Assembly: GCA_030390025.1 (NCBI GenBank)
Contig: CM059432.1
Location: 28,708,001-28,772,000 of the forward strand
Length of the DNA: 64,000 nt
Direction of reading: 5' to 3'
Source of the DNA: Squalus acanthias
Lineage: Eukaryota
Shown piece by piece: positions 23,406 to 63,074 of this stretch. Positions within the stretch are counted from its first letter, which is position 1. Every line of letters starts with the position of its first letter. The translations under genes and the position numbers were made by a program. The notes under the pieces were generated by a model. That model was not told the DNA's origin, did not search any database, and saw only the letters and a program-made list of their open reading frames with translations.

Positions 23406-23511
23406 TGTCCTAAGAACAGGAAAATCATGATGGCCCCTATTAACTGTACATATTTTGTGATAGCAACCTACTGATTGTTAGGGATTTTTCTCTCTGTATA
23501 ATAGAATTATA

Positions 23512-40460: not shown

Positions 40461-43168
40461 TCCTTTTTCTTTCTTACATCTGTATATAAACACTGTAACT
40501 CTGAACTTTCATTCCCCTCAGTGCCAATTTCCCTTCTTTATTTTAATTATTCTTTTCTTCAGTATTCTTTTCGTTAATGTCTCTCCATACTGCCATTTGA
40601 GTTTTTTGTAAATTTATTCATTCATGGGATGTGAGTGTTCCTGGCAAGGCCAGCATTTATTGCCCATTCCTAGTTGCCCTCGGTTAGCCGCCTCTTGAAC
40701 CACTGCAGTCCGTGTGGTAAAGGTACTCCCATGGTGCTGTTCGGTAGGGAGTTCCAGGATTTTGACCCAGCGACATTAGTACTGGTTCGGCTTAGGTAAA
40801 GACAATTCCATCTGTTGAGCTTTCACCTTCTCTGGAACTCATAGAACTGGAACTCTGGAACAAAGGAAGGATTGGGTCAAAGGGAGAGACCCACTGAAGG
40901 ATTGGGGATGAAGGGAGAAACTAGACAGAGGGATATATATACTAATATACCAACTAGGGAACAGGCTATTTTAGATCTAGTATTGTGCAACGAGAAAGGG
41001 TTAATTAATAACCTTGTAGTAAAGGGGCCTTTAGGGATGAGTGACCATAATATGATAGAATTTTATATTGAGTTTGAAAGTGACTTAGTTAAATCCAAAA
41101 CTAGGGTCTTAAATCTAAACAAAGCAAACTACGTAGGTATGAGGGGCGAGTTGGCTAAGGTAAATTGGGAAACTACATTAAAAGGTATGACAGTGGATGA
41201 GCAATGGCTAGCATTTAAAGAATTAATACATAATTTACAACAAATATACATTCCTTTAAGGCACAAAAACCCCACAGGAAAAGTAGTCCATCTGTGGCTA
41301 ACAAGGGAAGTTAAAGATAGTATTAGATCAAAGGAAGAGGCTTATAATTCTGCCAAAAAGAGTAGTAAGCCTGAGGATTGGGAGGATTTTAGAATTCAGC
41401 AAAGGAGGACAAGAAATTGATAAAGAAAGGGAAAATAGAATATGAGAGTAAACTAGCGAGAGACATAAAAACAAACTGTAAAAACTTCTATAGGTATGTA
41501 AAAAAGCAAAGATTAGCAAAAGTAAATGTGGGTCCCTTACAGGCTGAGACCGGAGAAATTATAATGGGGAATAAGGAAATGGCAGAGAAATTAAACAAAT
41601 ACTTCACGGAAGAAGATGCAAAAAACTTCCCAGAAATAGTGGAGAACCAAGGGCCTAGCGAGAATGAGGAACTGAAAGAAATTGGTATTAGTAAAAAAGT
41701 AGTACTGGAGAAATTAATGGGACTGAAAGCCGATAAATCCCCTGGATCTGATGGCATACATCCTAGGGTTTTGAAAGAGTTGGCTATAGAGATAGTGGAT
41801 GCATTGGTTGTCATTTTCCAAAATTCCATAGATTCTAGAATGGTTCCGGAAGGGAGTAAATGTAACCCCACTATTTAAGAAAGGAGGGAGAGAGAAAACG
41901 GGGAACTACAGACCAGTTAGCCTGACATCAGTAGTAGGGAAAATGCTACAATCTATTATTAAGGATGTGGTATGAAAGGGAAATCGTGTTTGACAAATCT
42001 GTTAGAGTTTTTTGAGGTTGTAACCAGCAGAATAGATAAGGGGGACCCAGTGGATGTGGTGTATTTGGATTTTCAGAAGGCATTCGATAAGGTGCCGCAC
42101 AAGAGGTTATTAAACAAAATTAGGGCTCATGGGATTGGGGGTAATATACTAGCATGGATTGAGGATTGGTTAATGGACAGAAAACAGAGAGTAGGAATAA
42201 ACGGGTCATTTTCGAGTTGGCAGGCTGTAACTAGTGGGGCACCGCAAGGATCAGTGCTTGGGCCTCAGCTATTCACAATCTACATCAATGATTTGGATGA
42301 GGGGACCAAATGTAATATATCCAAGTTTGCTGATGATACAAAGCTGGGTGGGAATGTAAGTTGTGAGGAGGATGCAAGGAGGCTTCAAGGGGATATAGAC
42401 AGGCTAAGTGAGTGGGCAAGAACATGGCAAATGGAATATAATGTGGAAAAATGTGAAATTATCCACTTTGGTAGGAAAAATAGAAAAGCAGAGTATTTTT
42501 TAAATGGTGAGAGATTGGGAAATGTTGGTGTTCGGAGGGACCTGGGTGTCCTTGTACACGAATCACTGAAAGTTAACATGCAGGTACAGCAATTAGGAAA
42601 GCAAATGGTATGTTGGCCTTTATTACAAGAGGATTTGAGTATAAGAGTAAAGATGTCTTACTGCAATTATATAGGGCCCTGGTGGGACCACACCTGGAGT
42701 ATTGTGTACAGTTTTAGTCTCCTTACCTAAGGAAGGATATACTTGCCATAGAGGGAGTGCAACGAAGGTTCACCAGACTGGTTCCTGGGATGGGGAAATT
42801 GTCCTATGAGGACAGATTGAGTAGACTAGGCCTATATTCTCTAGAGTTTAGAAGAATGAGAGGTGATCTCATTGAAACATACAAAATTCTTACAGGGCTT
42901 GACAGGGTAGATGCAGGGAGGATGTTTCCCCTGGCTGGGGAGTCTAGAACCAGGGGTCACAGTCTCAGAATAATGGGTCAGCCATTTAGGACTGAGATTA
43001 GGAGAAATTTCTTCACTCAGAGGGTGGTGAATCTTTGGAATTCTCTACCCCAGAGGGCTGTGGAGGCTCAGTCATTGAGTATATTCAAGACAGAGATCGA
43101 TAGATTTTTGAATATTAAGGGGTCAAGGGATATGGGGATAGTTCAGGAAAGTGGAGATGAGGTAGAAA

Positions 43169-44397
43169 CTGCTTCATCAATGACATAAGGTCAGAAATGG
43201 GGATGTTCGCTGATGACTGCACAGTGTTCAATGCCATTCACAACTCCTCAGATAATGAAGCAGTCCATGCCCGCATGCAACAAGACCACTGTCCAAAAAT
43301 GTGCGGGTTAGGTTGATTGGCTATGATAAAATTGACCCTTAGTGTTAGGGGGGGATTAAATATGTGGGGTTATGGGGATAGGATGGGATATGTTAGGGGG
43401 AATTAAATACGTGGGGTTACAGAGGTCGGGTGGGATATGTGTACTGTGGGGATTAAAGCAGGGACAGGGTACTGGATTTGAATGATCAGCCATGATCGTA
43501 TTGAATGGTGGTGCAGGCTCGACGGGCCGAATGGCCTACTCCTGCTCCTAGATTCTATGTTTCTATGTTTCTAGACAACGTTCAGGCTTGGGCTGATAAG
43601 TGACAAGTAACATTCGCGCCACAGAAGTGCCAGGCAATGACTATCTCCAACAAGCAAGAGTCTAACCACCGCCCCTTGACATTCAAAGGCATTTCCATCA
43701 CCGAATCCCCCACCATTAACATCCTGGGGGTTACCATTGACCAGGAACTTAACTGGACCAGCCACATAAATACTGTGGCAACAAGAGCAGGTCAGAGGCT
43801 AGGTATTCTGCGGCGAGTGTCTCACCTACTGACTCCCCAAAGCTTTTCTACCATCTACAAGGCACAAGTAAGGAGTGTGATGGAATACTCTCCACTTGCC
43901 TGGATAAGTGCAGCTCCAACAACACTCAAGAAGCTCAACACCATCCAGGACAAAGCAGCCCAAATGATTGGCACCCCATCTACCACCTTAAACATTCAGT
44001 CCCTCCACCACCGGTGTACTGTGGCTGCAGTGTGTACCATCTACAAGATGCACTGCAGCAACTCGTCAAGGCTTCTTCAGCAGCACCTCCCAAACCCGCG
44101 ACCTCTTCCACCTAGAAGGACAAGGGCAGCAGACGCATGGGAACACCACCACCTCCAAGTTCCCCTCCAAGTCACACACCATCCTGACTTAGAAGTATAT
44201 CACCGATCCTTCATCGTCGCTGGGTCAAAATCCTGGAACTCCCTACCTAACAGCACTGGGGGAGTACCTTCACCACACGGACTGCAGCGGTTCAAGAAGG
44301 CGGCTCACCACCACCTTCTCAAGGGCAATTAGGTATGGGCAATAAATGCTGGCCTTGCCAGCGACGCCCACATCCCATAAAAACAAATTTAAAAAAA
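43169..44397 (+). mobile_element. Second CR1-group (CR1/Crack-like) LINE 3-prime portion
   Basis: MFADD at about 43204, ORF 43637..44332 (ILGVTID, YKAQVRSVMEY) and an A-rich end. Confidence 0.85.
43287..43572 (+). mobile_element. V-SINE (HE1-like), 5-prime truncated, with CR1-derived tail
   Basis: V-domain gtccaaaaatgtgcgggttaggttgattggctatgataaaattgaccctt, then CR1 3-prime UTR and (TTTCTATG)n tail. Confidence 0.8.
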
Positions 44398-46015
44398 GAT
44401 CAGCCATGATCTTATTGAATGGCAGAGCAGGCTCGAAGGGCCAAATGGCCTACTCCTGCTCCTATTTCTTATGTTACTTGTCAGCTGGGAGTTTACTTAG
44501 ATTTTCAGCCCACTGCTGGCTAATTAAGGAGTGGAATCTTCTAGTCCCGGATTCAATTCCGGTGCTCCATGAAAATGTGCTTTAAAACGGTTAGATGTTT
44601 ACTCTAGTTATATATTAATAATAACTAACTAACTAGCTAACTAAATAAATAACGTCTATGGATGAGCTTGAGAACCATTTATGAATCCAAGCAGCTCCTG
44701 TTTTATTTACAACCTTTCAATCTGGCTTGGTTTCAGACAACCCTTCTGCCTGTTGCAGGCAAAACATGAACAGGTGCTGCAATAGATAACCAAAGGTAAA
44801 AGCCTTTCAGAAAATTGAATCCAGCTCTCCCAACTCCCTGGCAAGTTTGTCTAATGAGTAGCTGAGCTATACATATGAGGTTTGCAGGGGAGACCAGAAC
44901 TAGGGCCCATAAATATAAGATAGTCACTAATAAATCCAACAGGGAATTCAGGAAAAACCAGAGTGGTTAGAATATGGATTTCAAGGACCACAAGGAGTAG
45001 TTGAGACGACTAGCATAGATGCATTTATGGAGAAGCTAGATAAATACATGAGGGAGAAAGGAATAGAGGGATACACTGATGGGGTTGGATAAAGAAGGGT
45101 GGGAGGAGGCTTGTGTGGAGCATAAGCACCGATGTAGACCTGTTGGGACAAATGGCCTGTTTCTGTGCTGTAAATACTATGTAAGACTATGTTTGATTCT
45201 TCTAATTGCCCTGAGTTAGCTGATCTCAGTGGTCGAATAAACTGCTGACATTAACTAGCTAAGCTCACATTGAAGAATGGCCACTAGGATGAGGTACCAA
45301 GTGGAACCATACTTCAGCTAGAGTTGGCACCTTCACAAGAGGAGGGAAATCTGAATCAGTACTGCAGACCCAATCAGAAGAAATTCCATATCCTATTGGG
45401 ATCCACTATTTGAGAGTTGCAGCCTTTCCAAGTTTGGGTTAATTAAAAAATATCAATCCTCTGTCATCCAACACAATATACCATCTATTGAAATCAAAGA
45501 TATTGCTGTTACAAATTGGACAACTGGAGGTCACTGTATTGCAGGAGCATTTAATGGCTTAAAGTCATTTACTGTCTAAAGGCATTGATTCAGAGTAAAT
45601 CTCAGTAAGTATTTGACTTCACATGAGAAGTGCACTGATAGCTATTTTTAGCATAGATCATAATATGGTATTGAGCATACATTTACCACACACACGTATA
45701 TATATATTTTTGGTACAGGGTATAAAATCTATCCCATATCGCCCTGAATAGAGTTTCTGTTCAAGTTAGATGGCTCAATCGGTCGTCCAATGTTATTAAC
45801 CGTGACATCCCATCACCACAAAAAAAGCAATAAAAACAGAGAGAGTAAGCAATGTAAAGTGTGTATCTGTCCCACTTTGGAGCACATTCTTAGCTAAGGG
45901 GTCTCACTCATCTGGCTTTGATGGTTCCATCTCAGCCCTTAGATGGTTGGTACCTGCAGACTTTCTGTCACCCAACATCCTATAAAAAATCCAAGTGTGT
46001 ATTTGTTTTACTTAC

Positions 46016-46235
46016 TTTCCCCTTCGATCTTTTCGCACGTCCTGCACCAGGTGATCTGCCGGGTTTCTAGTTTAACCTGAAAAGTTTTTCTCTCCGGTCG
46101 CTGGGATTTTTTCTGATAATATAAAGTCATGACAGTTCCCAGCTCCAAGTTTCGGATGATCCTGCTAACTTCTGCCTCCATCCTCCCATCTTCCAGCAAA
46201 AATCCATTTGGAAAACCGACTCTGGACACTGACAT
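46016..46235 (-). CDS. PLCG1: Phospholipase C gamma 1 (or PLCG1-like) first coding exon, N-terminal PH domain
   Basis: ORF 46008..46235 reads LELGTVMTLYYQKKSQRPERKTFQVKLETRQITW...KIEG, diagnostic of PLCG1. ATG has A at -3. Phase-1 GTAAGT donor at 46010-46015. Lies downstream of TOP1 on the same strand, as in mammals. Confidence 0.9.
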
Positions 46236-47689
46236 CTTCAGAGCATCGTCCAGTAGATTATTTATAATTTAAGAAAAGTAAATAAACCCGATTTGATTGA
46301 ACAACAACAAAAAAACACCACGTTTTTAATTAGAATTCTAAACTGGCCCCTTTTCCCTGCCTTTATTTTTCCGCTGCAAACTAGTCTCCTGTTGGCCAGG
46401 GTAGGTACGCGGGTTCCCTCCTCTAATATATATTCATATCATTAAACGTGGAAAAAAAATTGCCAATGAAATTGCTCCAATGTTGCGGTGTTGGATCCTT
46501 GCCTGCTTCCTGGATGTCTGGATGTTCTTCCCCTTTCTGTCAAATCCTCGGTTGTACTGGCAGACGCACTGAAGATGGCTGAGTACTGCTGGAAATACAC
46601 ACACACACACACAGATATATATATATATATATATCCCCCCCACCCTTGTTTTTTTTTGTCAGTTTTAGTCCAAGTGAAATCGACACGGTCGAAAGGCAGA
46701 GCCGAGCCCAGAGGAAACAGCACATACACACATAGCCGGAAAGAGATCAGAGACAGGAATCTGAAATATTATAGGATCGGGGGAGGAAGGGGGGGAGAGA
46801 GAGAGGAAAAAAAGTGTTGAAAAGAATGAAAAACAGCGACATCTAGAGAGAAATGGTGAATACAAATAAAAAGAAGAGGACTGAAAAGGTGTGAAAGAGA
46901 GAGAGAGAAATATGAGGCAAAACGAATGCTAAGTAGGACAACTAATGGGCAAATGGCGAGGGCTGGAGTGGAGGAGGCAGACAGCAAGGGATAATACTTA
47001 TATTTATATCGTGCCTTATTACAAACACATGTCTCAAAATAATTCGCACAATGAATTACTTTTGGAGTGCAGTGACTTGTTATGGGGGAGAGAAGACAAT
47101 TTGAAATTAGACAGATGCTGTAGGAAGGGAGCCAATCCATAAAATATATCCAGGAAAAAGGTGACAGCAAAGAAACAGGAACTGAAAGAACAAGGAAAGA
47201 TAAAATGAGAGAAAGAGGTGGCATATGAAGAGAAAAAGAAAGACATTTCAAAAATAAATTTGCAAAAATTTGTGAGGCTTTGCTGGGGTTTACTAGTCAC
47301 TGATAGGTCAATTAACACAAGAGGGTCAGATCTGTGACCTACAGTCCCATCTTCGGAGGCTCCATCCCTGCCTCACAATAATTACCACACAACATATAGA
47401 TTTCTATATGTACAAACATCGTAAAGCCATTTGTGACAAGTCCCAATGTTCAGTATTTCTAGTGAAATCAGAAACATCCTCTTTAAAGCGAAATAAATCT
47501 TCAATGAATGATTGTGTTGCTAGACATAGCAATCCGGTTAATTCTTAGTTTCCCCATTATGGAAAGAGGAATACTAATCTAAAAATAGTAAGATGCAGAG
47601 AAATTGACAAACGAGGGAAAAAAGTGCAATAGAAAATAAAGAGGTAAGAGTGTTATCACTGAGTCAAGGTTTATTATAAGAAATAAAAA

Positions 47690-49215
47690 CAGAAAATTAC
47701 AACATGGAGGAAGGCAAATTTCAGTGGGTTGAGAATGGATCTGGCCCGGGTAAATTGAAATCAAAGATTGGCAGGCAAAACTATAATCGAACAATGGGCT
47801 GCCTTTAAAGAGGAGATGGTTCGGGTACAGTCGAGATACATTCCCATTAGGGTGAAAGGTAGGCCAAGAGGTCCTTGGTTGACGAAAGAGATGAAGAGTA
47901 AGATGAAGCAGAAAAAGAGCGCGTATGACAGATGTCAGGTTGAGAATACAAGTGAGAATCAGACTGAATATAGAAAGTTCAGAGGGGAAGTGAAAAAAAA
48001 CATAAGAGGGGCAAAGAGAGAGTATGAGAATAGATTGGCAGCTAACATAAAAGGGAATTCAAAAGTCTTCTATAGGCATATAAATAATAAACAAGTAGTA
48101 GGAGGGGTGGGGCTAATTAGGGACCAAAAAGGAGACCTACGCATGGAAGCAGAGGGCATAGCTGAGGTACTAAATGAGTACTTTGCATCTGTCTTCACCA
48201 AGAAGATGCTGCCAAAGTCATAGTGAAAGAGGTGAAAGAGTGGAGATACTGGATGAGATAAGAATTGATAAAGAGGAGGTACTAGAAAGGCTGTCTGTAC
48301 TTAAAGTTGATAAGTCACCAGGACTGGATGGGATGCATCCTAGGATGCTGAGGGAGGTTAAGGAGGAAATCGTGGAGGTACTGGCCATAATCTTCCAATC
48401 TTCCTTAGATACAGGGGTGGTGCCAGAGGACTAGAGAATTGCAAATGCTACACCCTTGATTAAAAACGGGTGTAAGGATAAACTCAGCAACAACAGGCCA
48501 GTCAGTTTAACCTAGTGGGGAAGCTTTTAGAAATGATAATCAGGGACAAAGTTAACAGTCACTTGGACAAGTGTGGATTAATTAAGGAAAGCCAGCATAG
48601 ATTTGTTAAAGGCAAATTGTGTTTAACTAACTTGATTGAGTTTTTTGATGAGGTAACAGAGAGGGTTGATGAGGGCAATGCGGTTGACGTGGATTTCCAA
48701 AAGACGTTTGATAAAGTGCTTGCCAGCAAAGATAATAGGCTTGCAAGCAAAGTTGAAGCCCATGGAATTAAAGGGACAGTGGCAGCATGGATACGGAATT
48801 GGCTAAGTGACAGGAAACAGAGAGTAGTGGTGAACAGTTGTTTTTTGGACTGGAGGAAGGTATACAGTGGTGTTCCCCAGAGGTTGGTACTAGGACCACT
48901 GCTTTTCTTGATATATATTAATGACTTGGACTTGGGAGTACAGGGCACAATTTCAAAATTTGCAGATGACACAAAACTTGGAATAGTGAGGAGGATAGTG
49001 ATAGACTTCAAAAGGACATAGACAAACTGGTGAAATGGGCGGACACATGACAGATGAAATTTAACGCAGAACAGTGCGAAGTGATACATTTTGGTCGGAA
49101 GAATGAGGAGAGGCAATATAAACTAAAGGGTACAATCCTAAAAGGGGTGCATGAACAGAGAGATCAGGTGCATATATGTGCACAATCATTGAAGCTGGCA
49201 GGGCAGGTTGAGAAA
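47690..49215 (+). mobile_element. CR1 LINE fragment, degenerate
   Basis: ORFs 47768..48223, 48174..48434, 48515..49021 and 49054 onward. Confidence 0.9.
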
Positions 49216-49849
49216 GCCAAAAAAAAAGTTAAAAAGTGCAAAACCTTTCTCCCCCCCTCCCCCCCCCCCCCAAATATAGCAATGGCCTTTTCCCTAAATT
49301 ACCTGCAACTGCTGCAATTTGCCACAATGGTCTCTCACAATGGAACTTGATCCACAGGAGCTGTGACCAGGTCAACAGCACCACAGAGAGCTCTTGGAGG
49401 CAGCAAGTGGAGGCAATGAGTGTGGAGCAGCTGGAGACAGTACCAGACAGAAGGCCTACATTGTACCAGACCATGGTATCTGTTATCAGGGACGGCGTAT
49501 CTGAGGTCAAAGCGGTCGATTTTGTGTGGGTAGGAGATGAGAAGAGATGTCACAACATGAAAGATGGGATGGATATGTTTATGAGGGGTTTGTGAGTTTC
49601 TTTGTGAATCATTTGATTGATTGTGCACTAATTATTTTTTTGATTTTACTGGTATATAGTGAGGTGGGCGAGGAACTATCATGACAGCTGTATATAGAAG
49701 AAAATAACTCTATAATATGATTGGGAGAAATTTTGTTTTTATGCAGCTTGATTGGTTATTTTCTACTTTCATTATTCACCAATTAGAGGCAAACAGAAGA
49801 AAATGAATGAACATGAAAGATGAATTTTTTGATCAGATAACTGTATTAC

Positions 49850-50225
49850 ATAACCTATAGACTGACTTATTATTGTATAATATACATCGACTGATATCCA
49901 TTATTATTTAAACCATTTGAACTCCTTGATTAAATTCCAACATGCATCTCATTCTGTAGTTTCCTTTATAAACCAACCAAACTTTTCAACTGAATTCCAG
50001 CACGTAACTCACTTCTGGGTATCCCTTATTCTATATATAAACCATTTGAACCCTTTGATTAGATTCTAGCCTGTAACTCAGTCCCAGGTATCCATTATTA
50101 TTCTGTATAAAAAAAACAATTGAATTCCTCAATTTAATTGCAGTCTCTAACTCATTGTTGGTATCCGTGATTTTGTGTATAAACCAGTTTAGTCCACCGA
50201 TTAGATTGCTGCTAGGTATCCATTA
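49850..50225. repeat. Degenerate minisatellite, unit about 60-65 bp
   Basis: Recurring tataaaccatttgaac..cttgattagattccagcctgtaactca...gggtatcc. Confidence 0.75.
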
Positions 50226-51544
50226 GATATCAACACTCTGGCCTGTTTATTTTTATGGTGTATCAGGAGTAGGAACCCTGGTTGTTTTCTTTTTATCTGT
50301 CAAGCACGTGGATGCTGAAGCCAATTGTAGCTCTCCTACTTCATTTACCTCATCTTCCCTCCTGCTCTTTTCACAATCAGTCGTGTCCTTCTCTATGGAC
50401 CTTGGTCTTTGCTAATGTTTTCTCATGTTAAGAAAATCCAACATTTTTTGCCAACTATCTGATTTTATTTATTTTTGAATCCAAATTTAAATGTGAAAAT
50501 GCCATTACTCAATATTAGCTAGTCGTTTTCCATAGATGTTTCCGTGGCTTGGCGTACATTTAAAAGCAGCACTACCTGTCTCTAAACTGGTTTTTAGTTG
50601 TTCTATTTGCATCTGGACGCATCTTAATCTATTCATCTGTTGTCAACAGTTGTTGGGTGTATGCACTTGATTAATCAGTTAAAAGCCCTATATGCTTTCA
50701 ATAGTCGAATGGCTAATATTGCATTACTATCACCAACTCAAGTTGTTGTAGTTAATAAGTATTTATTTATGTTTTACTCCCGTTGTGCCAATTAAGTATT
50801 CTCCCCTGGAGTATTGGCAAGAATGATTGGAATTAGGTCATCTCTGATGTATGTGATAATGTTGATTTTCTTTTGTTAAATTGCAGGAGGGCAAGAGCTG
50901 GAGGAAATGGCAGAGGCATTCAGATCAATTGGAGATCGCCCATGGTGGAGGCTTGGTTCCTAATTTCAGGGTCAAAAGGGACATTTGTTACAGGGATGGA
51001 ATATGCATTCTGTGCTGGGGCAGTAGGAAATAAATAGAGGGTGAGTTGGAAAACAAAGGCAGGAATTATGAAGCAAGGTGCAACAGTGCAATTGAGTGGA
51101 GTGGATGGGGATAATTACATAAAGACTTGCATTTATATAGCACCTTTCATGATCTCAGGATGTCCCAAAGCGCTTTAGTACTTTTTGAAATGTAGTCACT
51201 GTTGTAATGTATGAAATATTACATGCAGTGGCTAGGCTCAGGCAGCGATTGGCTTGAGCTCCCTCAGGCCTTTCTTAATAGGTTTAAAGGAGCATGCCTG
51301 GGACAACTACAGATTTTAATTTACATAACCAACTTGGATTCAGAACTCAATGCAAGTTGATCAAATTTTCAGGTGATATCAAACTGGGAGGGGCAGTGGA
51401 TTCAGCTCACAAATTAAAAAAATAGCTGAATAAAATATAAAAGTCAGTAGAAAAATAGCTGAAATTGAATGCAGACAAGTATAAAGAATTGCACATACCA
51501 AAAAAGTGGATGGGCAGACTCCATAAATGTTGAAATGGGCAAGT

Positions 51545-54500
51545 ATTTTTTATTTATTCACAGGATGTGGGCGTCACTGGTAAGGCCAGCATTTATTGCC
51601 CATCCCTAATTGTCCTTGAGAAGGTGGTGGTGAGCTGCCTTCTTGAACCGCTGCAGTCCATGTGGTGAAGGTACTCCCACAGTGCTGTTAGGTAGGGAGT
51701 TCCAGGATTTTGACCCAGTGACGATGAAGGAACGGCGATATATTTCCAAGTCAGGATGGTGTGTGACTTGGAGGGGAACTTGGAGGTGGTGGTGTTCCCA
51801 TGCGCCTGCTGCCCTTGTGCTCGGTGGTAGAGGTCACGGGTTTGGGAGGTGCTGTCGAAGAAGCCTTGGCGAGTTGCTGCAGTGTACCTTGTAGATGGTA
51901 CATACTGCAGCCACGGTGCGCTGATGGTGGAGGGAGTGAATGTTTAAGGTGGTGGATGGGGTGCCAAATCAAGCAGGCTGCTTTGTTCTGGAAGGTATCA
52001 AGCTTCTTGAGTGTTGTTGGAGCTGCACTCATCCAGACAAGTTGCGAGTATTCCATTACATTCCTAACTTGTGCCTTATAGATGGTGGAAAGGCTTTGGG
52101 GAGTCAGGAGGTGAGTCACTCGCCACAGAATACCCAGCCTCTGACCTGCTGGTCATCAGTCATCGATCTGAAACGTTAACTCGGTTTCTCTCTCCACAGA
52201 TGCTCCCTGACCTACTGAATATGTCCATCATTTTATTTTTATCTCTGACTTGCTATTGTAGCCACAGTATTTATGTGGCTGGTCCAGTTTGTTCTGGGCA
52301 ATAGTTACCTCCAGGTTGTTGACAGTGGGGGATTTGACAAAGGTAATGCTGTTGAATGTCAAGGGGAGGTGGTTAGACTCACTCTTGTTGGAGATGGTCA
52401 TTGCCTGGCACTTGTGTGGCGTGAATGTTACTTGCCACTTACCAGCGTAAACGTGAATGATGTTCAGGTCTTGCTGTATGCTGACATGGACTGCTTCATT
52501 ATCTGAGGAGTTGCGATTGGAACTGAACACTGCTCAATCATCAGTAAACATCCCCACTTTTGACCTTATGACAGACGGAAGGTCATTGATGAAGCAACTG
52601 AAGATGGTTGGGCTTAGGATACTGTCCTGAGAAACAATGTCCTGGGGCTGAGATGATTGGTCTCCAACAACCATAACCATCTTCCATTGTGGAGAGTTTT
52701 CCCCGATTCCCATTGACTTCAATTTTACTAGGACTGCCTGATGCCACACTCGATTAAATCTGCTTTGATGTCAAAGACAGTCACTTTCACCTCACCTTTG
52801 GAATTCAGCTCTTTTGTCCATGTTTGGTCCAAGGCTGTAACTAAAGAAGTTAAGGATAGCATTAGATTGAAAGAAGCTTATAATGTTGCAAATAGTAAGT
52901 CTGAGGATTGGGAGTTTCAGAAACCAGCAAAGGTTGACCAAAAAATTGATTAAAAGGGAAAAAAATAGAATGAGAGAAACTAGCAAGAAATATAAAAGCA
53001 GATTGTAAGAGTTTCTACAAGTATGTAAAAAGGAAAAGAGTAGCAAAAGTAAACATTGGTCCCTCAGAGGCTGAGACAGGAGAAATTATTATGGGGAATA
53101 AGGAAATGGCAGAAACGTTAAACAAATATTTTTTATCTGTCTTCACAGTAGAAGACACAAACAAGCATGCCAAAAATGGCGGGGAACCAAGGGTCTAATG
53201 AGGGTGAGGAACTTAACGTAATTTATATAAGTAGAGAAAAAGTACGAGAGAAACTAATGGGACTAAAAGCCAACAAATCCCCAGGACCTGACGGCCTACA
53301 TCCTAGGGTTCTAAAAGAAGTGGCTGAAGAGATAGTGGAAGCATTGGTTTTGATCTTCCAAAATTCCCTAGATTCTGGAATGGTCTCAGCGGATTAGAAG
53401 GTCGCAAATGTAACACCGCTATTCAAGAAAGGAGGGAGAGAAAAAACAGGGAACTACAGGCCAGTTAGCCTGACATCAGTCATCGGGAAAATGCTGGAAT
53501 CCATTGTTAAGGAAGTGGTATCAAGTCACTTAGAAAATCATAACATGATTAGGCAGAGTCAACATAGTTTTATGAAAGGGAAATCGTGTTTGACAAATTT
53601 ATTAGAGTTTTTTGAGGATCTAACTAGCAGGGTAGATAAAGGGGAACCAGTGGATGTAGTATATTTGGATTTCCAAAAGGCATTCGATAAGGAGCAACAT
53701 AAAATGTTATTACACAAGATTAGGGCTCATGGGGTTGGGGGTAATATAGTAGCATGGATAGAGGATTGGTTAACTGACAGAAAACAGAGATTAGGGATAA
53801 ACGGATCTTTTTCAGGTTGGCAGGCTGTAACTAGTGGGGTGCCGCAAGGATCAGTGTTGGGGCCTCAGCTATTTACAATCTATATTAATGACCTAGATGA
53901 AGGGACCGAGTGTAATGTATCCAAGTTTGCTGATGATACAAAGCTAGGTGGGACAGTAAGCTGTGAGGAGAACACAAAGAGTCTGCAAAGGGATATAGAT
54001 AGACTAAGTATGTGGGCAGTAAGGTGGCAGATCGAGTATAATGTAGGGAAATGAGAGGTTATTCACTTTGGTAGGAATAGAAAAACAGAATATTTTTTAA
54101 ATGGTGAGAAACTTTAAAATGTTGGTGTTCAGAAATATTTGGGTGTCCTCGTACAAGAAACACAGAAAGCTAGCATGCAGGTACAGCAAACAATAAGGAA
54201 GGCAAATGGCAAGTTGGCCTTTATTGTAAGGGGAGAGTGTAAGAGTAAGGAAGTCTTGCTACAATTGTACAGGGCCTTGGTGAGACCACACCTGGAGTAC
54301 TGTGCACAATTTTGGTCTCCTTATCTAAGGAAGGATATACTTGCCTTGGAGGCGGTGCAACGAAGGTTCACTAGATTGATTCCTGGGATGAGGGCTGACC
54401 TATGAGGAGAGATTGTGTAGAATGGGCCTATACTCTCTGGAGTTTAAAAGAATGAGAGGTGATCTTATTGAAACATACAAAATTCTGAAGGGGATTGACA

Positions 54501-55170
54501 GGGTACATGCTGAGAGGTTGTTTCCCCTGGCTGGAGTGTCTAGAACTAGGGGGCATTGTCTCAGGATAAGGGACTGAGGTGAGGAGGAATTTCTTCACTC
54601 AGAGGGTTGTGAATCTTTGGAATTCTCTGTCCCAGAGGGCTGTGCATGCTGAGTCTTTGAGTATATTCAAAGCTTAGATAGATTTTTGGACTCGAGGGGA
54701 ATCAAGGGATATGGAGATCGGGCGGGAAAGTGGAGTTGAGGTCGATGATCAGGCATGATCTTATTGAATGGCGGAGCAGGCTCGAGGGGCCTACTCCTGC
54801 TCTTATTTCTTATGAGGTCTGGAGCCGAGTAGTCCTGGTGGAACCTGAACTGGGCAATAGTGAGCAGGTTATTGGTAAGATAGTACTGTCAATGACCCCT
54901 TCCATCACTTTGCTGATGATTGAGAATAGGCTGATGGGGCAGTAATTGCCAGATTGGATTTGACCTGCTTTTTGTGGACAGGACATACCTGGGCAATTTT
55001 CCACTTTGTCAGGTAGATGTCAGTGTTGTACTGGAACAGCTTGGCTAGAGGCACGGCTAGTTCTGGAGCACAAGTCTTTAGCACTGCAACCGGGATGTTG
55101 TTGGACCCATAACCTTTGCTGTATCCAGTGCGCTCAGCCGTTTCTTGATATCACATGGAGTGAATCGAAG
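51545..55170 (-). mobile_element. Second CR1-group LINE, split by a CR1 (52840-54812) and a Penelope-like relic (about 52155-52245)
   Basis: ORFs 51751..52119, 52228..52530, 52534..52749 and 54810..55004. Host sequence aaggctgtaa|tgaggtc rejoins across the CR1. Confidence 0.82.
52840..54812 (+). mobile_element. CR1 LINE fragment
   Basis: ORFs 53167..53397, 53491..54054 and 54139..54405, with 3-prime UTR and tail. Confidence 0.93.
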
Positions 55171-57468
55171 TACGTGGAGTATAAAACTGAGAAAGCTAGG
55201 AGTCTTAGCCATACGTCTTAGAACCTGCTCAACAAACCAGTACAGAACAGCCAATAAAATGTTGAACTATATAGCCAAAACAGTAGAATGCAATTCAGAA
55301 GAGGTAGTAAACAAACTTTATCGTACTCTGGTCAGACTGCACCTTGAGTACGACATCCAGTCCTGGTCACTGAGACACAAGAGATAGAGGCTATATCCTA
55401 ACATCAATCGGCTGAACTATGAGGAAAGACTGGAGGGATGGGCTTTTCAGACTGGGAAGCAGGGATCGGAGAGGTATAGACAATATTAATTGGAATAGAA
55501 ATGGCAAACCTGCAATTACTTTAAACTGTGAGAGTAGGACAAAGAGACACTGATTCAAGCTAGTCAGGTCAATTTAGGACCGTCTGAAAATTCTTCATAG
55601 AAGGCATATTCAAAATATGAAACAGACTTTATATATAGAGTAATGGAGGCAAAAACCCTGGAATCATTTAATAAACAAATGCAGGGGGTGGCAGAAGCAT
55701 AAGGTTGTTCTGAATGGATGAATTAAGATGGGTTGAATGGTCTTCCTCCTCTGTAATTATCATGTGATCTTGTAACTGGATTATTTTAAGTGTATTAGTG
55801 GAGAAAAGGTGAAAGCATTTTGTTGATGCAGATTAAGATATTTTGAATTCATATTTTCCTTGGCCTGCCCTTTTAAGACTGCTGGGGTGGCTGAATTGAG
55901 AAGAGTCAGAAGAGAAGGGCATTGGTTGATGTGGATGGGTAAATAGGAAACTACATTTCAATGTCCACAGACAGTTGTCTGTAATAGGCCCAGGGCCAGA
56001 AACCTGGCTTTGCCCTCCTCAGATAAACCTACCTCATTTCTGGTATTCTGGATTGATAGTTACCTATGGTGCTCACTTCCCTCTTCTTGAAGACTTGGTT
56101 GGTCATATCACGTCCAACACAATGCCACAGATAGCAACTCTCTCCTCTTTGCAAGTTGTTTCTTGGAGGCTTTGCTTATTTTGCACCTGTCATTTTGTTA
56201 ATTTTAAGCTGGTACATTTGGAAACCAAAGATCACACGACTAGATTATAGTTTAGCAAAACTCAATTCAAATAAGTGACATTGAAATTTGCAATTGAGAG
56301 TAGACTGTTAAGTTTGTCTGTAAATTAAACAAACATTCTCTTTGTTTATGTGGTGTTTGTTCGGTCTATGGAGGCAGGAGAGGTGGGATCAAGATTTGGT
56401 GTTCTGTTGCTTGGTGATTTCCTTTATGTAGGCCTGCTATTTTCAGCTTTCTGTTCTGGTTCTTCAGATTTATTTGTTGGGGAGGGAGAATATACATCGC
56501 AGAAAATCTTATGCCAGTTACTAGTTCTGTTGTGAGAAGAGGATTTCAGAGCATTGTCTATTGCTTTCTGGTTGTTCCTTAAACTTCTCATTTTTTCAGG
56601 TCCAGCATATGGAAAGATAGAGGCCATTAAAAAAATCATTTCCCCCAGGATAATTTCAAAGATTGTTTCTGTTTGCCTTCGGTGGCCTTAATCACATAAC
56701 ATTAAACTCACACCTATGGGTACAATCTTTTTAGAATGTTTTGACTGTGCACCGTGTTTAATATACAATTAATAGATTTCCCACCCCGCCTTTGCTTTCT
56801 TAGGTCTAGGACATAGGAATTACCTGACCCTGAACCCAGATTAGCACCAATCTACAAACACAATGGGTAGATGCTCTAATTTTCCAACCCGCTGTTTCAT
56901 AGTACTTGGTTTCCATTCAACTGTTTTGTAATGCTTATAATAATCATTTGTTTTTGCTCTATGCTATTGTCAATGGCTTGAGCTACACTGAGATACTGCA
57001 TTCTGCTTTGTTGTGTGTGATATTCACCTGCAATTGCAGTGCAGTGTTTGTGCACTTATAAAGGTAACATCCCAAGAACTTTGAGGTGATTGAGAGATGT
57101 ATTAAGGTGCTATATAAATGCAAGTTTATTTTTTTCTTTCGAAGCACCTCATGGCTTCCCAACGTGCGCTTACAGACATGCTGCAATACAGCACTACTAA
57201 GCCAAAACGTTTACTTTCATTAAGCTTTACATATTTCAATAACTTTAATCTCAATTCTTTCCAATGAACATTTCCTACCAACTGTGCAACAAAGCAAATT
57301 TATCAAAAAATGATTTATATTATAAATTTGTAAATAATACAAACCTATTGAAAGAAACACAGATTCAGTGAACAGTGTTCAAGTGCAAATCTTTATAATG
57401 TAACATCTTTTTTTGACTCCCTGAGGTATTGTGTAATTGCTTCTCGAGGTGAACATTTGCGTTTTGTT

Positions 57469-57571
57469 TTAGAATTCAAAGTCCTCGTCGGTCATATCGA
57501 TAGCCCAGGCAAATTTCTCTCTCTGCGTCTTGTTGTAGATCTTCTCAATGGGAACGTTCCACTTCTTGCAC
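57469..57571 (-). CDS. TOP1: TOP1/TOP1-like terminal coding exon, (W)[37 protein letters not shown]
   Basis: AG acceptor at 57572-57573 and TAA stop at 57469-57471. Canonical TOP1 C-terminus. Confidence 0.96.
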
Positions 57572-58225
57572 CTTCAACAAAGAACGGAGATAATTAGGTA
57601 AACATATAGTTCATATTTAGGCTGCTAGTAATTTTACTGTAATTTCATAAATATGCAAGATTATACAAAAAGTTAATACAAATGACAAGAGTTGACATCT
57701 TTTACCAAATCCAAAACCAGGCAAGATGAAAAATAGTCAAAGGGTAGGATCAGGGCCTGAGTTCTGATGTTTGGGGGGGGGGGGGGGGGGATGAGGGAGA
57801 AAGAGAAATATCTCAAAAAGACTTGTTAGAAATATAAAAAACAATGAATGCTAATTTGAAATAAACACAGAAATTGCTGGTCAGTCAGTATCTGAAAAAG
57901 AGGAGAGACAAGTTAAAGTTTTGAGAGGAGAAACTTTGTCAGAACAGAATCGGAATCTGGTCTCTAGTTTATGCTTTAGAATAGTTCCAGACGCCTCACT
58001 CAAAAACTGAATTTGGCGAGTGGGGGTGCAACAACATTAAAATATCTAAACACTGCCTCTACTGCCAACTGCTTGGCTTGTAACTGCCATACCCAACCAA
58101 CATTGTTTTTCGTAGTTTAGATTATTCAGGACATCAAATTATATCAATCCCATGGCCTCATTGCAGCAGCTGAGGTAGTGTTGTGGTAGCGTTGTATGCC
58201 AAAAACTTTGTACAGTTTCACTGAC

Positions 58226-58375
58226 CAAGCCACAGTGATCCTAGGATCAAGGTAGTTCAGTTTGGACGTGCCCAACGCAATCTGCTTGTTCTCCTCTCGG
58301 TCTGTTGCTTGAACCTCCAGCTTCATCAGTTGTTCCTCTAACCTCTGTAACTGCTTCTTCTTCTTCTCCACCACC
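58226..58375 (-). CDS. TOP1: TOP1/TOP1-like exon with active-site Tyr, 150 bp, [49 protein letters not shown](W)
   Basis: CAG acceptor and GTCAGT donor. [11 protein letters not shown] is the topoisomerase IB active-site signature; Tyr codon at 58252-58254. Confidence 0.97.
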
Positions 58376-58721
58376 CTGCACAAAGAAACTTCATGTCAGT
58401 CCCTTTGGAACAAGATCATTTAAAAAGTCATCTTCATTTCTAGTCTCCTTGCTCCAACAGGGCAAGCAGGTCATTTCACAATTCTTTGGGAAGCGATAAA
58501 AAGTCAAGACGACTCACTTCTAGGCCAAGATTTCATCACGGCTCTCTTCACCCCCACCTCCCCCATCCCAAACAATTTACTTGCCAACTTATGCTGGGAT
58601 ACACTTCCACAGCTCCTCTGGCTGCTCCTTGCTCACATGGCCATTATCAACATGTGGTTATTGACTGAATGTTGACAGAGCATTTGATGAAAGGGTACAA
58701 TCACAGCTGTGTCTGGTTCTC

Positions 58722-59080
58722 ACTAGACATCTTTCAAGAGTTGATAAGGTAGATAGAGATAGAAACTATTTCCTCTGGTGGGGAATCCAGAACAAGAGGG
58801 CATAACCTGTAAAATTTGAGCTAGGCCGTTCAGGGGTGATGCAAGGAAACACTCCTTCACACAAAGGGTAATGGAAATCTGGAACTCTCTCCTCCAAAAA
58901 GCTGTTGAGGCTAGGCAAATTGAAAATTCCAAAACCAAGATTGATGGATTTTTGTTAGGGAAGGATATTAAGGATTATGGAACCAAGGCGGGTGGATGGT
59001 GTTAAAATACAGATCAGCCATGATCTAAGTGAATGGTGGAACAGGCTCGAGGGAGCTGAATGGCCTCCTCCTGCTCCTAG
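58722..59080 (+). mobile_element. CR1 3-prime fragment in a TOP1 intron
   Basis: End of ORF2 and 3-prime UTR (cagatcagccatgatc...aatggcctcctcctgctcct). Confidence 0.82.
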
Positions 59081-59318
59081 CCTACCAGTGCTGGGCTCAG
59101 CTCTGTATAGCACCATTTTGCCAATTGATCAAACTAGGAGAGTAATGCTTCTTTTTAAAACAGAGAATGTGAATATTGTAAAAGTAGACAATTATTTCCT
59201 CCCAGTTAAACTACAAAAATTGAGATTAAAAAACATTTTATTCTTTCCTATTGAAGTCCCTTGCTTCAACAGGAGGCTGTTTAATGAGTCGGTGTGGTCC
59301 TGCTCAGGAAATACTTAC

Positions 59319-59413
59319 TGTTTTGATCTTTCATCTTTTTTCACTTTGTAATCCACCTTGGCATTTTTCAGATCTTTCTTTGCCATATTAAGTTGTTCTT
59401 TTTTTGCTTCAAT
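59319..59413 (-). CDS. TOP1: TOP1/TOP1-like linker-domain exon, 95 bp, IEAKKEQLNMAKKDLKNAKVDYKVKKDERSK(Q)
   Basis: CAG acceptor and GTAAGT donor. Lys-rich coiled-coil linker, phase-compatible (0 to 2). Confidence 0.92.
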
Positions 59414-60942
59414 CTGCCAATAGAAAAATATGAACTCTGAATCACAGCCTGTTTGTTACTGCCACGTTTACAGATTACCAGCCCAAGAATTCTCAGTCAG
59501 AAAGGGATCTCACAGGTAGCCTCCCTTTCCTCTTCCTAAGCATGGCTGGCCCTTCAGTCACTCACCCAACTGGACATTTCTCAAGTGTGAACCTAGACAA
59601 AGTGCCTCAGTCAAATCCTCACTGGATTTCAACAGCTGCAGGATTCAGAGTAGCAGTAGGAGCCGGATCCTAGCTGATTAAATTGCCCACTCGAAGTGGC
59701 ACGGAGGTAGACTATAGCATTCCACTGCTATGCCAACAATGGCGATCAAAGCTGGAATTGGACTCTACTGCATTTCCACATCAGGTGGAGCTGAACCTCC
59801 TCTAGCTTAAAAAAAAAAATTCTGTATCAAACAATGTTCCCGCTATTTATTTTTTTTTTTAACGTAAATTGTTACGATCTGGAATGCACTGCCTGAAAGA
59901 GTGGTGGAAGCAGATTCAATAGTAACATTCAAAAGGAAATTGGATATGTAAATCAAAAAGTAAAACTTTGAAGGGCTATGGGGCAAGAAGCAGGGGAGTG
60001 GGACTAATTAGACAGCTCTTTCAAAGAGCCGGCATTAGGCATGATGGGTCAAGTGGCCTCCTTCTGTGCTGTAAGATTCTATTTTTTATTTTTACAGACA
60101 CAACCCATTCCCTCTTACTGATGGCATTGTTGAGCACTGTGGAAGTAATGGTTGTCAAGTGTAGCCACCTGCAGGTTTTTACTGGTATTGGAGCCCCCTA
60201 GGCTGCAATCCTGAGCAGGGCTGTTTTAAAAGGTTACTCTCTCATCTACCACTAGAAACATACGTGCGCTCAATTTTTTACTTTAAAAAAAAATGCATTC
60301 TTCACAAATTTTTCAACATATTTCTTTCTCTCTCACACTCCACAGCTGGTAACCTCTAAAATCATGCCAAACAAATGGAGCAACAAGTCTGCTGAGAATA
60401 ACAGGTGCTGGGAGATAAGTCATAAGTGGCTCCAGGCTGTAGCATCAGTACCTCAGAAAGTGATTCAAAAGTACCATCGTGCGCGATTTAAGGTGTGACC
60501 TAATTGAAGTTTTCAAAATTATGAAGAGAATTGGTAAAAGTAATCCAGGCAAATTGTTCACTATGGTAAAGACTTTGAATACAAGTTAAAAATTAGAAAG
60601 TTCGGAACATGTAGGGAGGTCCAGTGGAATGTTTCCAGCCAAGGTGTAATGGCATTGTGGGACTAGTTATCCAAGAAAGGCCTTTAAGCCAGATGGTATA
60701 AATGGGTTTGCAGCACAATCTGAAATGTTTCTAGAGGAAGGATTGAGAGATGCGGTGAGAAGTTGGATAGAAAGGGCTGAGAATCCATTAAAAAGGATGG
60801 GTTTGCTTGCACTGAATGTCTGTTCCCGTTCTTATTAGAATATGTAAGAAACACAATATTCACTTTGTGCTAGTTCAATGAATGAGTATTGTTGTGTTTA
60901 TTGCAGTGTGCATTTTCTGCTCTGGTTGTCAAGACATTCTAC

Positions 60943-61070
60943 CTTGGTCTGAATGGTTTTCATGGATTTCTCAAAGGTTTTCGGGGGCGCCCTCTGGTGG
61001 TTGCAGAGAATGGCCACTGCTCTGTTGGCTCGGTTGTAGGCCAGGATTTTTTCTGCGATACTTTCTTCGG
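60943..61070 (-). CDS. TOP1: TOP1/TOP1-like exon, 128 bp, (P)[42 protein letters not shown]
   Basis: CAG acceptor and GTAGAA donor. Contains ILCNHQR with the catalytic His (H632 equivalent). Overlaps ORF 60898..61110. Confidence 0.95.
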
Positions 61071-61214
61071 CTGTAAAGAAAAAAAACAAGCAAACCATGT
61101 CCTTGATCAAATAATTGAATTATAGTAAAAGCTGCTTATTTAATTGTTTCAGGTGGGTAAGGTTTTAGAAAAGGCAAGAATCCTGTGGCATCAACTTTTT
61201 GTTAAGGATCACAA

Positions 61215-62420
61215 ATCGTAGGAACATTAGGTCATTCATCCACTTAAGCCGGTTTTACAATTCAATTAGATCATGGCTGACCTGTACCTTAACTCTATTT
61301 ACCCACCTTTGCTCCATATCCCTCGATCCCCTTACCCAACAAAAATCTATCGATCTCAGTCCTGAAAGCTCCAATTGACCAATCATTCACAGCCTTTTTA
61401 GGGAGAGATCTCCAGATTTGCACTACCTTTTGTGTGACCAAGTGTTTCCGGATTTCACTCTGCTTTTCTATTTTTCCTACCAAAGTGGATAACTTCACAT
61501 TTCTCCACATAATATTCCATTTGCCATGTTCTTGCCCACTCACTTAGCCTGTCTATCTCCCCTTGAAGCCTCCTTGCATTCTCCTCACAACTTACATTCC
61601 CACCTAGCTTTGTATCATCAGCAAACTTGGATATATTACATTTGGTCCCCTCATTCAAATCATTGATCTAGGTTATAAATAGCTGAGTTCCAAGCACTGA
61701 TCCTTGCGGTACCCCACTAGTTACAGCCTGTCAACCCGAAAATGACCCATTTATTCCTACTCTCTGTTTTCTGTCGGTTAACCAATCATTAATCCATGCT
61801 AGTATATAACCCCCAATCCCATGAGCCCTAATTTTGTTTAATAACCTCTTGTGTGGCACCTTATCGAATTCCTTCTGAGGATCCAAATACACCACATCCA
61901 CTAGTTCTCCCTTAACTATTCTGTTAGTTACAACTTCAAAAAACTCCAATAGATTTGTCATAAATCCTTGTTGACTCTGCCCAATCCGATTATTATTTTC
62001 TAAGTGCCCTGTTATCATGTTCTTAATAGATTCTAGCATTTTCCTACTACTGATGTCAGGCTAACTGGTCTGTAGTTCCCCGTTTTCTCTCTCCCTCCTT
62101 TCTTAAATAGTGGGGTTACATTTGCTACCTTCCAATCCGCGGGAACCGTTCTAGAATCTATGGAATTTTGGAAGATGACAACCAATGCATCCACTATCTC
62201 TATAGCCATCTCTTTTAAAACCCTAGGATGTAGGCCATCAGGTCCAGGGGATTTATCGGCTTTCAGTCCCATTAATTTCTCCAGTACTACTTTTTTACTA
62301 ATACTAATTCTTTCAGTTCCTCATTCGGACTAGACCCTTGGTTCTCCACTATTTACGGAATGTTTTTTGCGTCTTCTTCTGTGAAGACAGACACAAAGTA
62401 TTTGTTTAATTTCTCTGCCA
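61215..62420 (-). mobile_element. CR1 fragment with internal deletion in a TOP1 intron
   Basis: ORFs 61295..61543, 61455..61658, 61731..62039 and 62033..62272. Confidence 0.92.
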
Positions 62421-62693
62421 TATAAAGTGCAGAGAGAGAGGTTGATGTTTTCGGTGCAGTTAAAGCCTAAAGCAAGACGATATTCTGTTGCTTATCGGAG
62501 TCACAAGGAAGATTCTGTAGCTAAAGCATAATCTAAAGTTAGGTTTTTTGTACCGTATCCCATTTCTGATGAAGGGTCGGTCGTACCTGAACCGTTAACC
62601 CATCTTATTCAGATGCATTGCCTCCATTTTCTATTCTTATTCAGATTCAATTTTATGCCAACAAAAGGATTCAATGACAGGATAATCACTTAC

Positions 62694-62808
62694 GGTCAGT
62701 CAATTCTACCAACTGTTCTTGCAGTGTGATGGAGGCATTGTACGTTCGGAACACTTTGGCAGTGAGCCCCTCCATCAACTCCTGAAGGTGCTTGTTCAGA
62801 TCAGAGGT
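62694..62808 (-). CDS. TOP1: TOP1/TOP1-like exon, 115 bp, [38 protein letters not shown](P)
   Basis: TAG acceptor and GTAAGT donor. Contains [10 protein letters not shown] with the catalytic Arg (human R590 equivalent). In phase with flanking exons. Not in the ORF track; translated by hand. Confidence 0.95.
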
Positions 62809-63005
62809 CTAAAGATAGAAAATAAAACTCATTAGTTCTTTTTCTTAGCTCCAGAAAGATGTTTTGTTTAGTCTATGGTTGGTGGTAGTAAGCTGATCTA
62901 AACAGATTCCTTTCAGCATTAATTCGTACAGGTATACATGAGGGTAGAAAAAACTGAGCATTAGATAAATGTACATTAGTGAGATTCACAAAAAACAAAA
63001 CATAC

Positions 63006-63074
63006 GTTCAATCTGTCAAACAGGTCATCTGCAGGATCCTTATTCTCCATGAATAATTTTAGATTCTTGAACAC
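63006..63074 (-). CDS. TOP1: DNA topoisomerase IB (TOP1/TOP1-like) internal exon, 69 bp, VFKNLKLFMENKDPADDLFDRLN
   Basis: AG acceptor (CT at 63075-63076 on +) and GTATG donor (AC at 63004-63005). Peptide matches the TOP1 core domain. Upstream exons lie beyond the window. Confidence 0.93.

Follow-up and report, generated by a model that had tools for sequence, protein, structure and literature searches.

A shark locus with the 3' end of TOP1MT and the first exon of a third PLC-gamma gene, the probable twin of TOP1–PLCG1

A stretch of 64,000 nucleotides (nt) from Squalus acanthias (assembly GCA_030390025.1, contig CM059432.1, positions 28,708,001 to 28,772,000 of the forward strand; hereafter the window) carries the last exons of a type IB topoisomerase (TOP1B) gene and, further on along the same strand, the first exon of a phospholipase C-gamma (PLC-gamma) gene. 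The order and strand are those of TOP1 and PLCG1, and the locus raises the question of whether the two genes are TOP1 and PLCG1 themselves or duplicates of them. An initial annotation, made from the sequence alone, reported six intact TOP1-type exons followed about 11 kb later by a PLCG1-type exon and suggested that the pair may be paralogs retained from a whole-genome duplication. The splice sites, the frame, and the distance agree with this description, and the motifs that it named are present in the window. We regard it as very probable that the window holds the 3' end of the shark TOP1MT gene and exon 1 of a third PLC-gamma gene (hereafter PLCG1-like), and that the two are the retained twin of the TOP1–PLCG1 pair.

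The six topoisomerase exons (minus strand, 63074-57469; Table 1) all have AG acceptors, with GT donors at the five internal ends, and on splicing give a single open frame of 219 amino acids (aa) plus a stop codon. The catalytic arginine (AKVFRT), histidine (CNHQR), and tyrosine (NYLDPR) of a type IB topoisomerase all lie in this frame, Topo_C_assoc and Topoisom_I were recognized by Pfam in single exons, and the peptide aligned to human TOP1, via an orthologue, with no gap. The PLC-gamma exon (46235-46016) comprises 73 codons and one additional nt, starts at the first ATG after an in-frame stop, approximately 11.2 kb from the topoisomerase stop codon, and is 97% identical to shark PLC-gamma proteins; exon 1 alone gave no Pfam match. 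In tblastn searches of the 64-kb window with orthologues, neither upstream TOP1MT exons nor a PLC exon beyond residue 73 was detected, and an Rfam search of the window returned no match.

Over the 219 aa, the window topoisomerase is 95-96% identical to the proteins encoded at a second TOP1B locus of Heptranchias, Pristiophorus, and Heterodontus, 81-82% to shark TOP1, 81-83% to many TOP1 proteins, and 68-70% to primate TOP1MT. In two trees, it was nested in the clade of the second-locus shark sequences with support values of 96 and 97, as the sister to the Pristiophorus sequence with modest support, and TOP1 formed a separate clade (99 and 100) with its own chondrichthyan members. A recent duplication within chondrichthyans was rejected as the source of the window gene by an approximately unbiased (AU) test (p = 0.002). 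The earlier claim that the gene is not the TOP1 ortholog was thus borne out: the 219 aa fall outside the TOP1 clade, closer copies exist at the second locus of related genomes, and sharks, rays, and chimaera possess a separate TOP1 on another contig, 92-95% identical to the TOP1 consensus. TOP1 and the second locus were on different contigs in the nine chondrichthyan assemblies in which both were listed, and two protein searches found only two TOP1B loci per shark.

The second locus could in principle be TOP1MT or a further paralogue. Since an unrooted tree cannot separate these two, outgroups were added; from 80 metagenome loci, 18 were translated, 17 without a stop codon, and six entered the rooted tree and five the AU tests. 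The trees do not settle the matter, and we identify the window topoisomerase as the known TOP1MT, not a third enzyme, because of a published label, a short form with a leader resembling a mitochondrial targeting sequence (MTS), and a PLC neighbour shared with tetrapods. As for the label, Moreira et al. 2023 (PMC10081982) mark Chiloscyllium plagiosum XP_043543828.1 as MT in their supplement. The orthologue used here, P0132, is from the same shark (XP_043543830.1, isoform X3) and, judging from the accession numbering, belongs to the same gene; the PLCG1-like records of this shark are XP_043543826/7. The short isoform of the second-locus gene with an MTS-like leader is 603-604 aa long (603-615 aa among the orthologues' short forms) against 601 aa in human TOP1MT. 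Furthermore, beyond 16 other elasmobranch rows, the top matches to the CAP region were almost all proteins named TOP1MT of birds, marsupials, frogs, and reptiles.

The initial annotation had also described the topoisomerase as a mosaic of TOP1 and TOP1MT features. Two of the four motifs called TOP1MT-like proved diagnostic, as NKDP and LQEQL occurred in none of the 19 TOP1 rows and in 11 and 12, respectively, of the 17 rows of bony-vertebrate TOP1MT; the other two are common in TOP1, with LQE[LE]M in 14 and terminal DFEF in 10 of the 19 rows. At the 34 columns that separate TOP1 from bony-vertebrate TOP1MT, the Heptranchias protein showed 14 TOP1 states, 13 TOP1MT states, and 7 others. The outgroups agreed with the shark consensus in 9 of the 14 columns where the latter had the TOP1MT state; those states are therefore mostly ancestral, and polarizing the columns did not settle the identity. 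Core identity to the TOP1 consensus was 74-80.5% for TOP1MT of shark, ray, amphibian, reptile, bird, platypus, and marsupial, about 72% for three placental TOP1MT, 73-74% for two teleosts, and 88-94% for the TOP1 rows. Judged by these identities, the shark gene is an ordinary non-placental TOP1MT and the human protein is the outlier. The cores of non-placental TOP1MT would have stayed near TOP1 and the placental ones drifted, and the mosaic impression arose because the fast-evolving human TOP1MT served as the yardstick. The pattern is normal for non-placental TOP1MT, which makes a third topoisomerase, one of the two options considered earlier, unlikely.

We then turn to the PLC-gamma exon. Its best matches were shark and ray proteins named 'gamma-1-like' (97-71%), followed by 'gamma-1-like' proteins of bird, turtle, and newt, and canonical PLCG1 ranked behind. 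Sorted against reference sets, the best 120 of 398 matches comprised 38 PLCG1-like rows, all with YQKK or HQKK, and 82 rows of PLCG1 type; no named mammal was among the former and every named mammal was in the latter. PLCG1 and PLCG1-like formed sister clades with support values of 100 and 99, each containing cartilaginous fish, ray-finned fish, and tetrapods, and the members of the latter were sharks, at least one teleost, amphibians, reptiles, and birds. The window PLC fell in the PLCG1-like clade, and its grouping with chimaera PLCG1 was rejected (p = 0.0002). Both the claim that this gene is not the PLCG1 ortholog and the suggestion of an extra PLC-gamma lost in mammals agree with these results. 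Nor is it a PLCG2 orthologue, as the Heterodontus orthologue scored 2043 bits against solved PLCG1 and 1485 against PLCG2. One sequence considered as a possible PLCG2, P0478, proved to be of invertebrate type and was rejected.

The window itself holds exon 1 only, and membership in the PLC-gamma family is seen in the orthologues. P0003 (97% identical over exon 1) shows the order PH, EF, X, SH2-SH2-SH3, split PH, Y, and C2, with the two catalytic histidine motifs and the regulatory tyrosine segment retained. PLCG1-like shares these three features with PLCG1, as well as the position downstream of a TOP1B gene on the same strand and a first exon coding for the start of the N-terminal PH region. 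In contrast to PLCG1, it has its own N-terminus, YQKK for YSKK, PHFY for PGFY before the activating tyrosine, another C-terminal tail, and no mammalian member among the matches listed. The two proteins are 71% identical. PLCG1-like is 86% identical between shark and bird, and PLCG1 is less conserved, at 78% from chimaera to mouse. The human genome has two PLCG genes. Altogether, PLCG1-like is, in sequence terms, a real and strongly conserved third PLC-gamma gene, and tyrosine kinases probably activate its product as they do PLCG1. The RefSeq entries 'PLC gamma-1-like' of sharks, birds, turtles, and amphibians are the same gene, so that the name is already in the automatic annotation.

The neighbourhood of the two genes in other genomes was judged by contigs of the same size, locus tags, and the order of accessions, not by coordinates. 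TOP1MT and PLCG1-like were on a same-sized contig in 17 of the 18 elasmobranch assemblies listing both (the 18th is that of S. torazame, which is fragmented), and their accessions were directly consecutive in Heterodontus, Narcine, and Amblyraja. Among tetrapods, TOP1MT-side proteins were on the same contig as PLCG1-like in two quails and two further birds, in alligator, and in turtle; the locus tags of the quails were 4 and 2 apart, and the accessions of a caecilian 11 apart. The shark gene is thus at the same locus as tetrapod TOP1MT, both being beside the same PLCG1-like orthologue. The canonical pair of Callorhinchus (XP_007903384/5), in which TOP1 is beside a YSKK-type PLCG1, was found on another scaffold.

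Several points weigh against the identification of the pair as TOP1MT and PLCG1-like. The clade of shark and bony-vertebrate TOP1MT received support of only 85 and 78, the AU tests rejected neither a position of the shark gene beside TOP1 (p = 0.065) nor one outside TOP1 plus TOP1MT (p = 0.069), and the site patterns were split 2:3:1. The TOP1B trees were quick searches, and the outgroups of the rooted one were distant metagenome sequences; the PLC trees were quick as well (LG+G4), with tunicate, other invertebrate-type, and cyclostome rows as the outgroups and no PLCG2 row. The separate TOP1–PLCG1 locus is evidenced from relatives, not from S. acanthias itself. Two of the 38 PLCG1-like rows carry no species name, and the absence of mammals rests on the best 120 of 398 matches. 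The accessions of TOP1MT and PLCG1-like are not close to each other in Melopsittacus and Chiroxiphia (birds) or in Stegostoma and Carcharodon (sharks). Finally, PLCG1 and PLCG1-like of the snake Liasis (P0107 and P0291) are on contigs of one size, 203,662,644, and may share a chromosome there (the same contig does not mean adjacency).

A third vertebrate TOP1B paralogue beyond TOP1 and TOP1MT, kept in cartilaginous fishes together with the extra PLC-gamma, would be compatible with the two AU results, with the mixed states of the Heptranchias protein, and with the long nuclear-type isoforms predicted at the shark locus (see below). However, long isoforms occur at tetrapod TOP1MT as well, the searches found only two TOP1B loci per shark, the length of the MTS-like isoform is near that of human TOP1MT, the shark neighbour is orthologous to the PLC by TOP1MT in quails, alligator, and caecilian, and the CAP-region matches bear the name of TOP1MT. 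We thus regard a third topoisomerase as very unlikely. Of the two options left by the initial annotation, the conservative TOP1MT with a retained PLCG neighbour is the one favoured by synteny, the MTS-like isoform, and the published label, although the trees alone do not reject the other.

If the pair is TOP1MT and PLCG1-like, the two neighbours were duplicated together, before the split of sharks and bony fishes, and are on different chromosomes from their paralogues. We propose that a chromosome segment with an ancestral TOP1B–PLCG pair was duplicated before the divergence of cartilaginous from bony fishes, most simply by a vertebrate whole-genome duplication, and that one copy would have become TOP1–PLCG1 and the other TOP1MT–PLCG1-like; the PLC of the latter copy appears to have been lost in mammals. 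The topoisomerase would be a normal type IB relaxase, and its short isoform with an MTS-like leader, as predicted in the orthologues, would serve mitochondrial DNA. Instead of a whole-genome duplication, a local duplication of the segment early in jawed vertebrates would suffice for the comparison made here, which covers two adjacent genes. Against it, the copies were on different large chromosomes in every shark listing both, and two published accounts connect the region to genome duplication: the available text of Moreira et al. 2023 (PMC10081982) ties the TOP1/TOP1MT split to the first round of vertebrate whole-genome duplication (1R), and that of PMC7144352 ties the split of ZHX3, a neighbour of TOP1, from ZHX1/2 to genome duplication, with TOP1, PLCG1, and MAFB named in the legend of its ZHX synteny figure. 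The pairing of MAFB and MAFA in human 20q12 and 8q24 would point the same way. A segmental origin is therefore improbable in our view, to a similar degree as a third topoisomerase.

Regarding the date of the proposed whole-genome duplication, one PLC lineage of lamprey and hagfish was placed outside both PLC clades, and its joining either of them gave AU p values of 0.03 and 0.046. This placement leans weakly towards the second round (2R), as the tree had a single cyclostome lineage, long branches, and no PLCG2 row. Since two adjacent genes must have been duplicated at one time, the 1R date published for TOP1/TOP1MT can be tested with the long PLC sequences. The remaining explanation, simply diverged orthologues of TOP1 and PLCG1, draws on the shared order and strand, the 81-83% identity to many TOP1 proteins, and the gap-free alignment to human TOP1 but can practically be dismissed, as it is refuted by the separate TOP1 of sharks, rays, and chimaera, by the Callorhinchus TOP1 beside a canonical PLCG1, and by both trees, provided that the records of the separate shark TOP1 and of chimaera PLCG1 are correct.

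The gene models in the window were compared with contigs from public sequencing runs (X1, X4, X5, and X10), which were only guessed to be of RNA, none being recorded as such. Contigs of X1, X4, and X5 matched the last topoisomerase exon and its 3' untranslated region (UTR) (57569-57119) with 0-1 differences and broke at the exon edge; they end at 57119, 11 nt from the start of AATAAA at 57130. A contig of X5 spans 46757-46016 and continues for 588 nt past the donor with no match on the window, and a contig of X10 also breaks at 46016 and continues. Thus, the contigs behave like spliced messages at the last topoisomerase exon and the PLC exon. Contig placement over 18 kb was swamped by repeats, the joint table containing none of the five introns, and only the table of pieces was usable. 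X1 and X4 contigs also cover most of the last TOP1MT intron (57597-58253) at a depth of 7-9, compared with 52-59 on the last exon, and may represent unspliced or intron-retaining RNA, or DNA in the run.

The exons upstream of the window were approached through the gene models of relatives, the records of which include isoforms and partial models. Among 161 TOP1MT-type records, 63 had a charged stretch ending in W[KR]WW, 49 a short MTS-like leader, and 38 an unclear N-terminus, and 11 lacked the start of the core. Both types met at one junction in nine species (four sharks, three rays or skates, one bird, and a wallaby), and the charged type was also found in chimaera, two teleosts, frogs, and turtle. 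It was found in none of the five named placental records, one of which lacks the junction, and the single platypus record was of the short type. The leader of the main elasmobranch short forms is 43-55 aa long with 5-10 K/R and 0-1 D/E, a composition of an MTS as seen in the orthologues. Conservation of the long N-terminus among sharks and rays is 49-74% over approximately 250 aa, and the chimaera sequence reaches 67% over 51 aa; the long N-terminus is therefore under constraint as a protein. No BLAST similarity to TOP1 N-termini was found at E <= 0.05, and the long N-terminus scarcely aligns between classes, so its homology across classes would rest on the shared junction and composition. A merged model of S. 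torazame runs in the order of the long part, the end of the MTS leader, and the core; by this order, the MTS exon follows the long exons and precedes the core.

The junction aligns with W203/W205/W206 of human TOP1; the long form restores all three tryptophans and most short forms keep one. In the available parts of their paper, Dalla Rosa et al. 2009 (PMC2770673) report that the tryptophans contribute to the control of the DNA clamp, that Top1mt lacks two of them, and that human Top1mt directed to the nucleus associates poorly with chromosomes. The contigs of X1 and X5, from two studies, carry 1582 nt ahead of the last exon, and in 15 of 15 elasmobranch proteins checked, the last exon is 1581 nt away from the third base of the junction codon; assuming an equal core length here, both contigs begin one base before the first exon of the core. 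This hints at an assembly break where two 5' partners merge, but an unspliced intron set against a leader exon ending in CGG would produce a break at the same point.

The predicted proteins of relatives suggest a nuclear isoform of TOP1MT. We lean, with some reserve, towards the following scenario: in non-placental jawed vertebrates, TOP1MT would make a nuclear TOP1B with a long charged N-terminus and the clamp tryptophans from an upstream start and a mitochondrial enzyme from an internal first exon, one splice choice swapping both the address and the clamp, and placentals would have lost the nuclear exons, so that the mitochondria-only enzyme would be a late derived state; mammals would have lost the adjoining PLC. 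TOP1MT is described as exclusively mitochondrial with a short N-terminus in the available text of PMC10081982 and PMC8455175, and the word 'isoform' is absent from that of the former. This localisation was stated for the human protein, and the predicted long isoforms would argue against it in non-placentals. A further idea, that the nuclear isoform alone keeps the core TOP1-like, was weakened by two teleost rows with a long N-terminus, which are as diverged as the placentals (73-74%).

The shark gene shares with vertebrate TOP1MT, as covered by the available text of PMC10081982, PMC2770673, and PMC8455175, the core, the catalytic residues, and, in the best trees, the paralogue clade, and its orthologues' basic leader, with almost no acidic residues, meets the core in the manner of the short tetrapod forms. 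A core of 13 exons with conserved intron positions is characteristic of TOP1MT, and the window covers the last six exons. It differs in being much nearer TOP1 than primate TOP1MT is, in keeping the PLC-gamma neighbour, and in RefSeq models of 800-1030 aa in addition to the short form that those papers describe. With nuclear TOP1, it shares the aligned tryptophans and K/R clusters of the long isoform predicted in the orthologues, but it differs in its separate clade and chromosome and in an N-terminus of approximately 250-570 aa (full-length forms) compared with approximately 205. Database names are inverted in places, with long charged isoforms called 'mitochondrial-like' and short MTS forms 'topoisomerase 1-like' (P0138, P0311, P0314, and similar records), and canonical Mustelus TOP1 is named 'mitochondrial'. 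The model of Heptranchias isoform X3 (P0121) skips, in frame, the 150-nt exon with the catalytic tyrosine equivalent to 58226-58375 of the window; P0378 (Callorhinchus X4) lacks 50 of the 219 columns, possibly by the same skip, as possibly does P0128 (Narcine X5). Several species may have such a catalytically dead TOP1MT splice form.

The identity of the topoisomerase was already known, and the third PLC-gamma seems to have been little described. The long TOP1MT isoform and the third PLC-gamma are both already implicit in RefSeq models; the literature searched, with most subscription journals outside its coverage, gave no account of a third PLC-gamma paralogue or of a long or nuclear TOP1MT isoform, which does not imply absence from print. 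Vertebrates appear to have had three PLC-gamma genes, and signalling work in non-mammals may miss a redundant effector of receptor tyrosine kinases; database names blur the third gene with PLCG1. The most interesting lead is the nuclear-type TOP1MT isoform predicted from the gene models of relatives. If it is real and nuclear, the division of organelles between TOP1 and TOP1MT at the origin of vertebrates would hold for placentals only, and a second nuclear target would have to be taken into account when camptothecin or knock-down results from cells of fish, frog, and bird are interpreted. The long form would be a candidate for the high-molecular-weight topoisomerase I of Xenopus oocytes, on which the literature searched gave no account. 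A table of RNA granules of Xenopus oocytes in the available text of PMC8861640 includes Top1mt, the isoform not being given.

Table 1. Features of the TOP1MT and PLCG1-like genes in the window (position 1 is the first nt of the window)
Feature	Position	Strand	Evidence
TOP1MT coding exon, sixth from end, 69 nt	63006..63074	-	AG/GT, in frame
TOP1MT coding exon, 115 nt, AKVFRT with catalytic arginine	62694..62808	-	Splice sites and frame; active-site R590 in motif per PMC10081982 (available text)
TOP1MT coding exon, 128 nt, catalytic histidine (CNHQR) and start of linker	60943..61070	-	Pfam Topoisom_I; best match Heptranchias second-locus protein, 98%
TOP1MT linker exon, 95 nt	59319..59413	-	Part of 219-aa model, 95-96% identical to closest shark orthologues
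TOP1MT exon, 150 nt, catalytic tyrosine (NYLDPR)	58226..58375	-	Splice sites and frame; Pfam Topo_C_assoc
TOP1MT last exon, 103 coding nt (57571-57469, stop ends at 57469) and 3' UTR	57119..57571	-	AATAAA at 57130; contigs end at 57119
Third PLC-gamma exon 1, 5' untranslated part, at least this long	46236..46757	-	One-piece X5 contig over 46757-46016
Third PLC-gamma exon 1, coding part, 73 aa, YQKK type (PLCG1-like)	46016..46235	-	GT donor, shark matches, contigs X5 and X10
PLC-gamma intron 1, >46 kb, many remnants of long interspersed nuclear elements (LINEs)	1..46015	-	No later PLC exon by tblastn

A (TA)n/(GT)n microsatellite at 46588-46647 is inside the transcribed 5' untranslated part of PLC exon 1. 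Within PLC intron 1, blocks with a CpG observed/expected ratio of 0.7-0.9 were found at 2001-3000, 10001-11000, 23001-25000, 32001-33000, and 37001-38000, one of them GC-rich (56%); the blocks may be repeats or regulatory islands. LINE-type reverse-transcriptase remnants were found at 16976-18097 (+), 3923-4912 (-), 41963-42730 (+), and 53398-54054 (+), among others, and the longest open reverse-transcriptase stretch in the window (373 aa) matches Pfam RVT_1.

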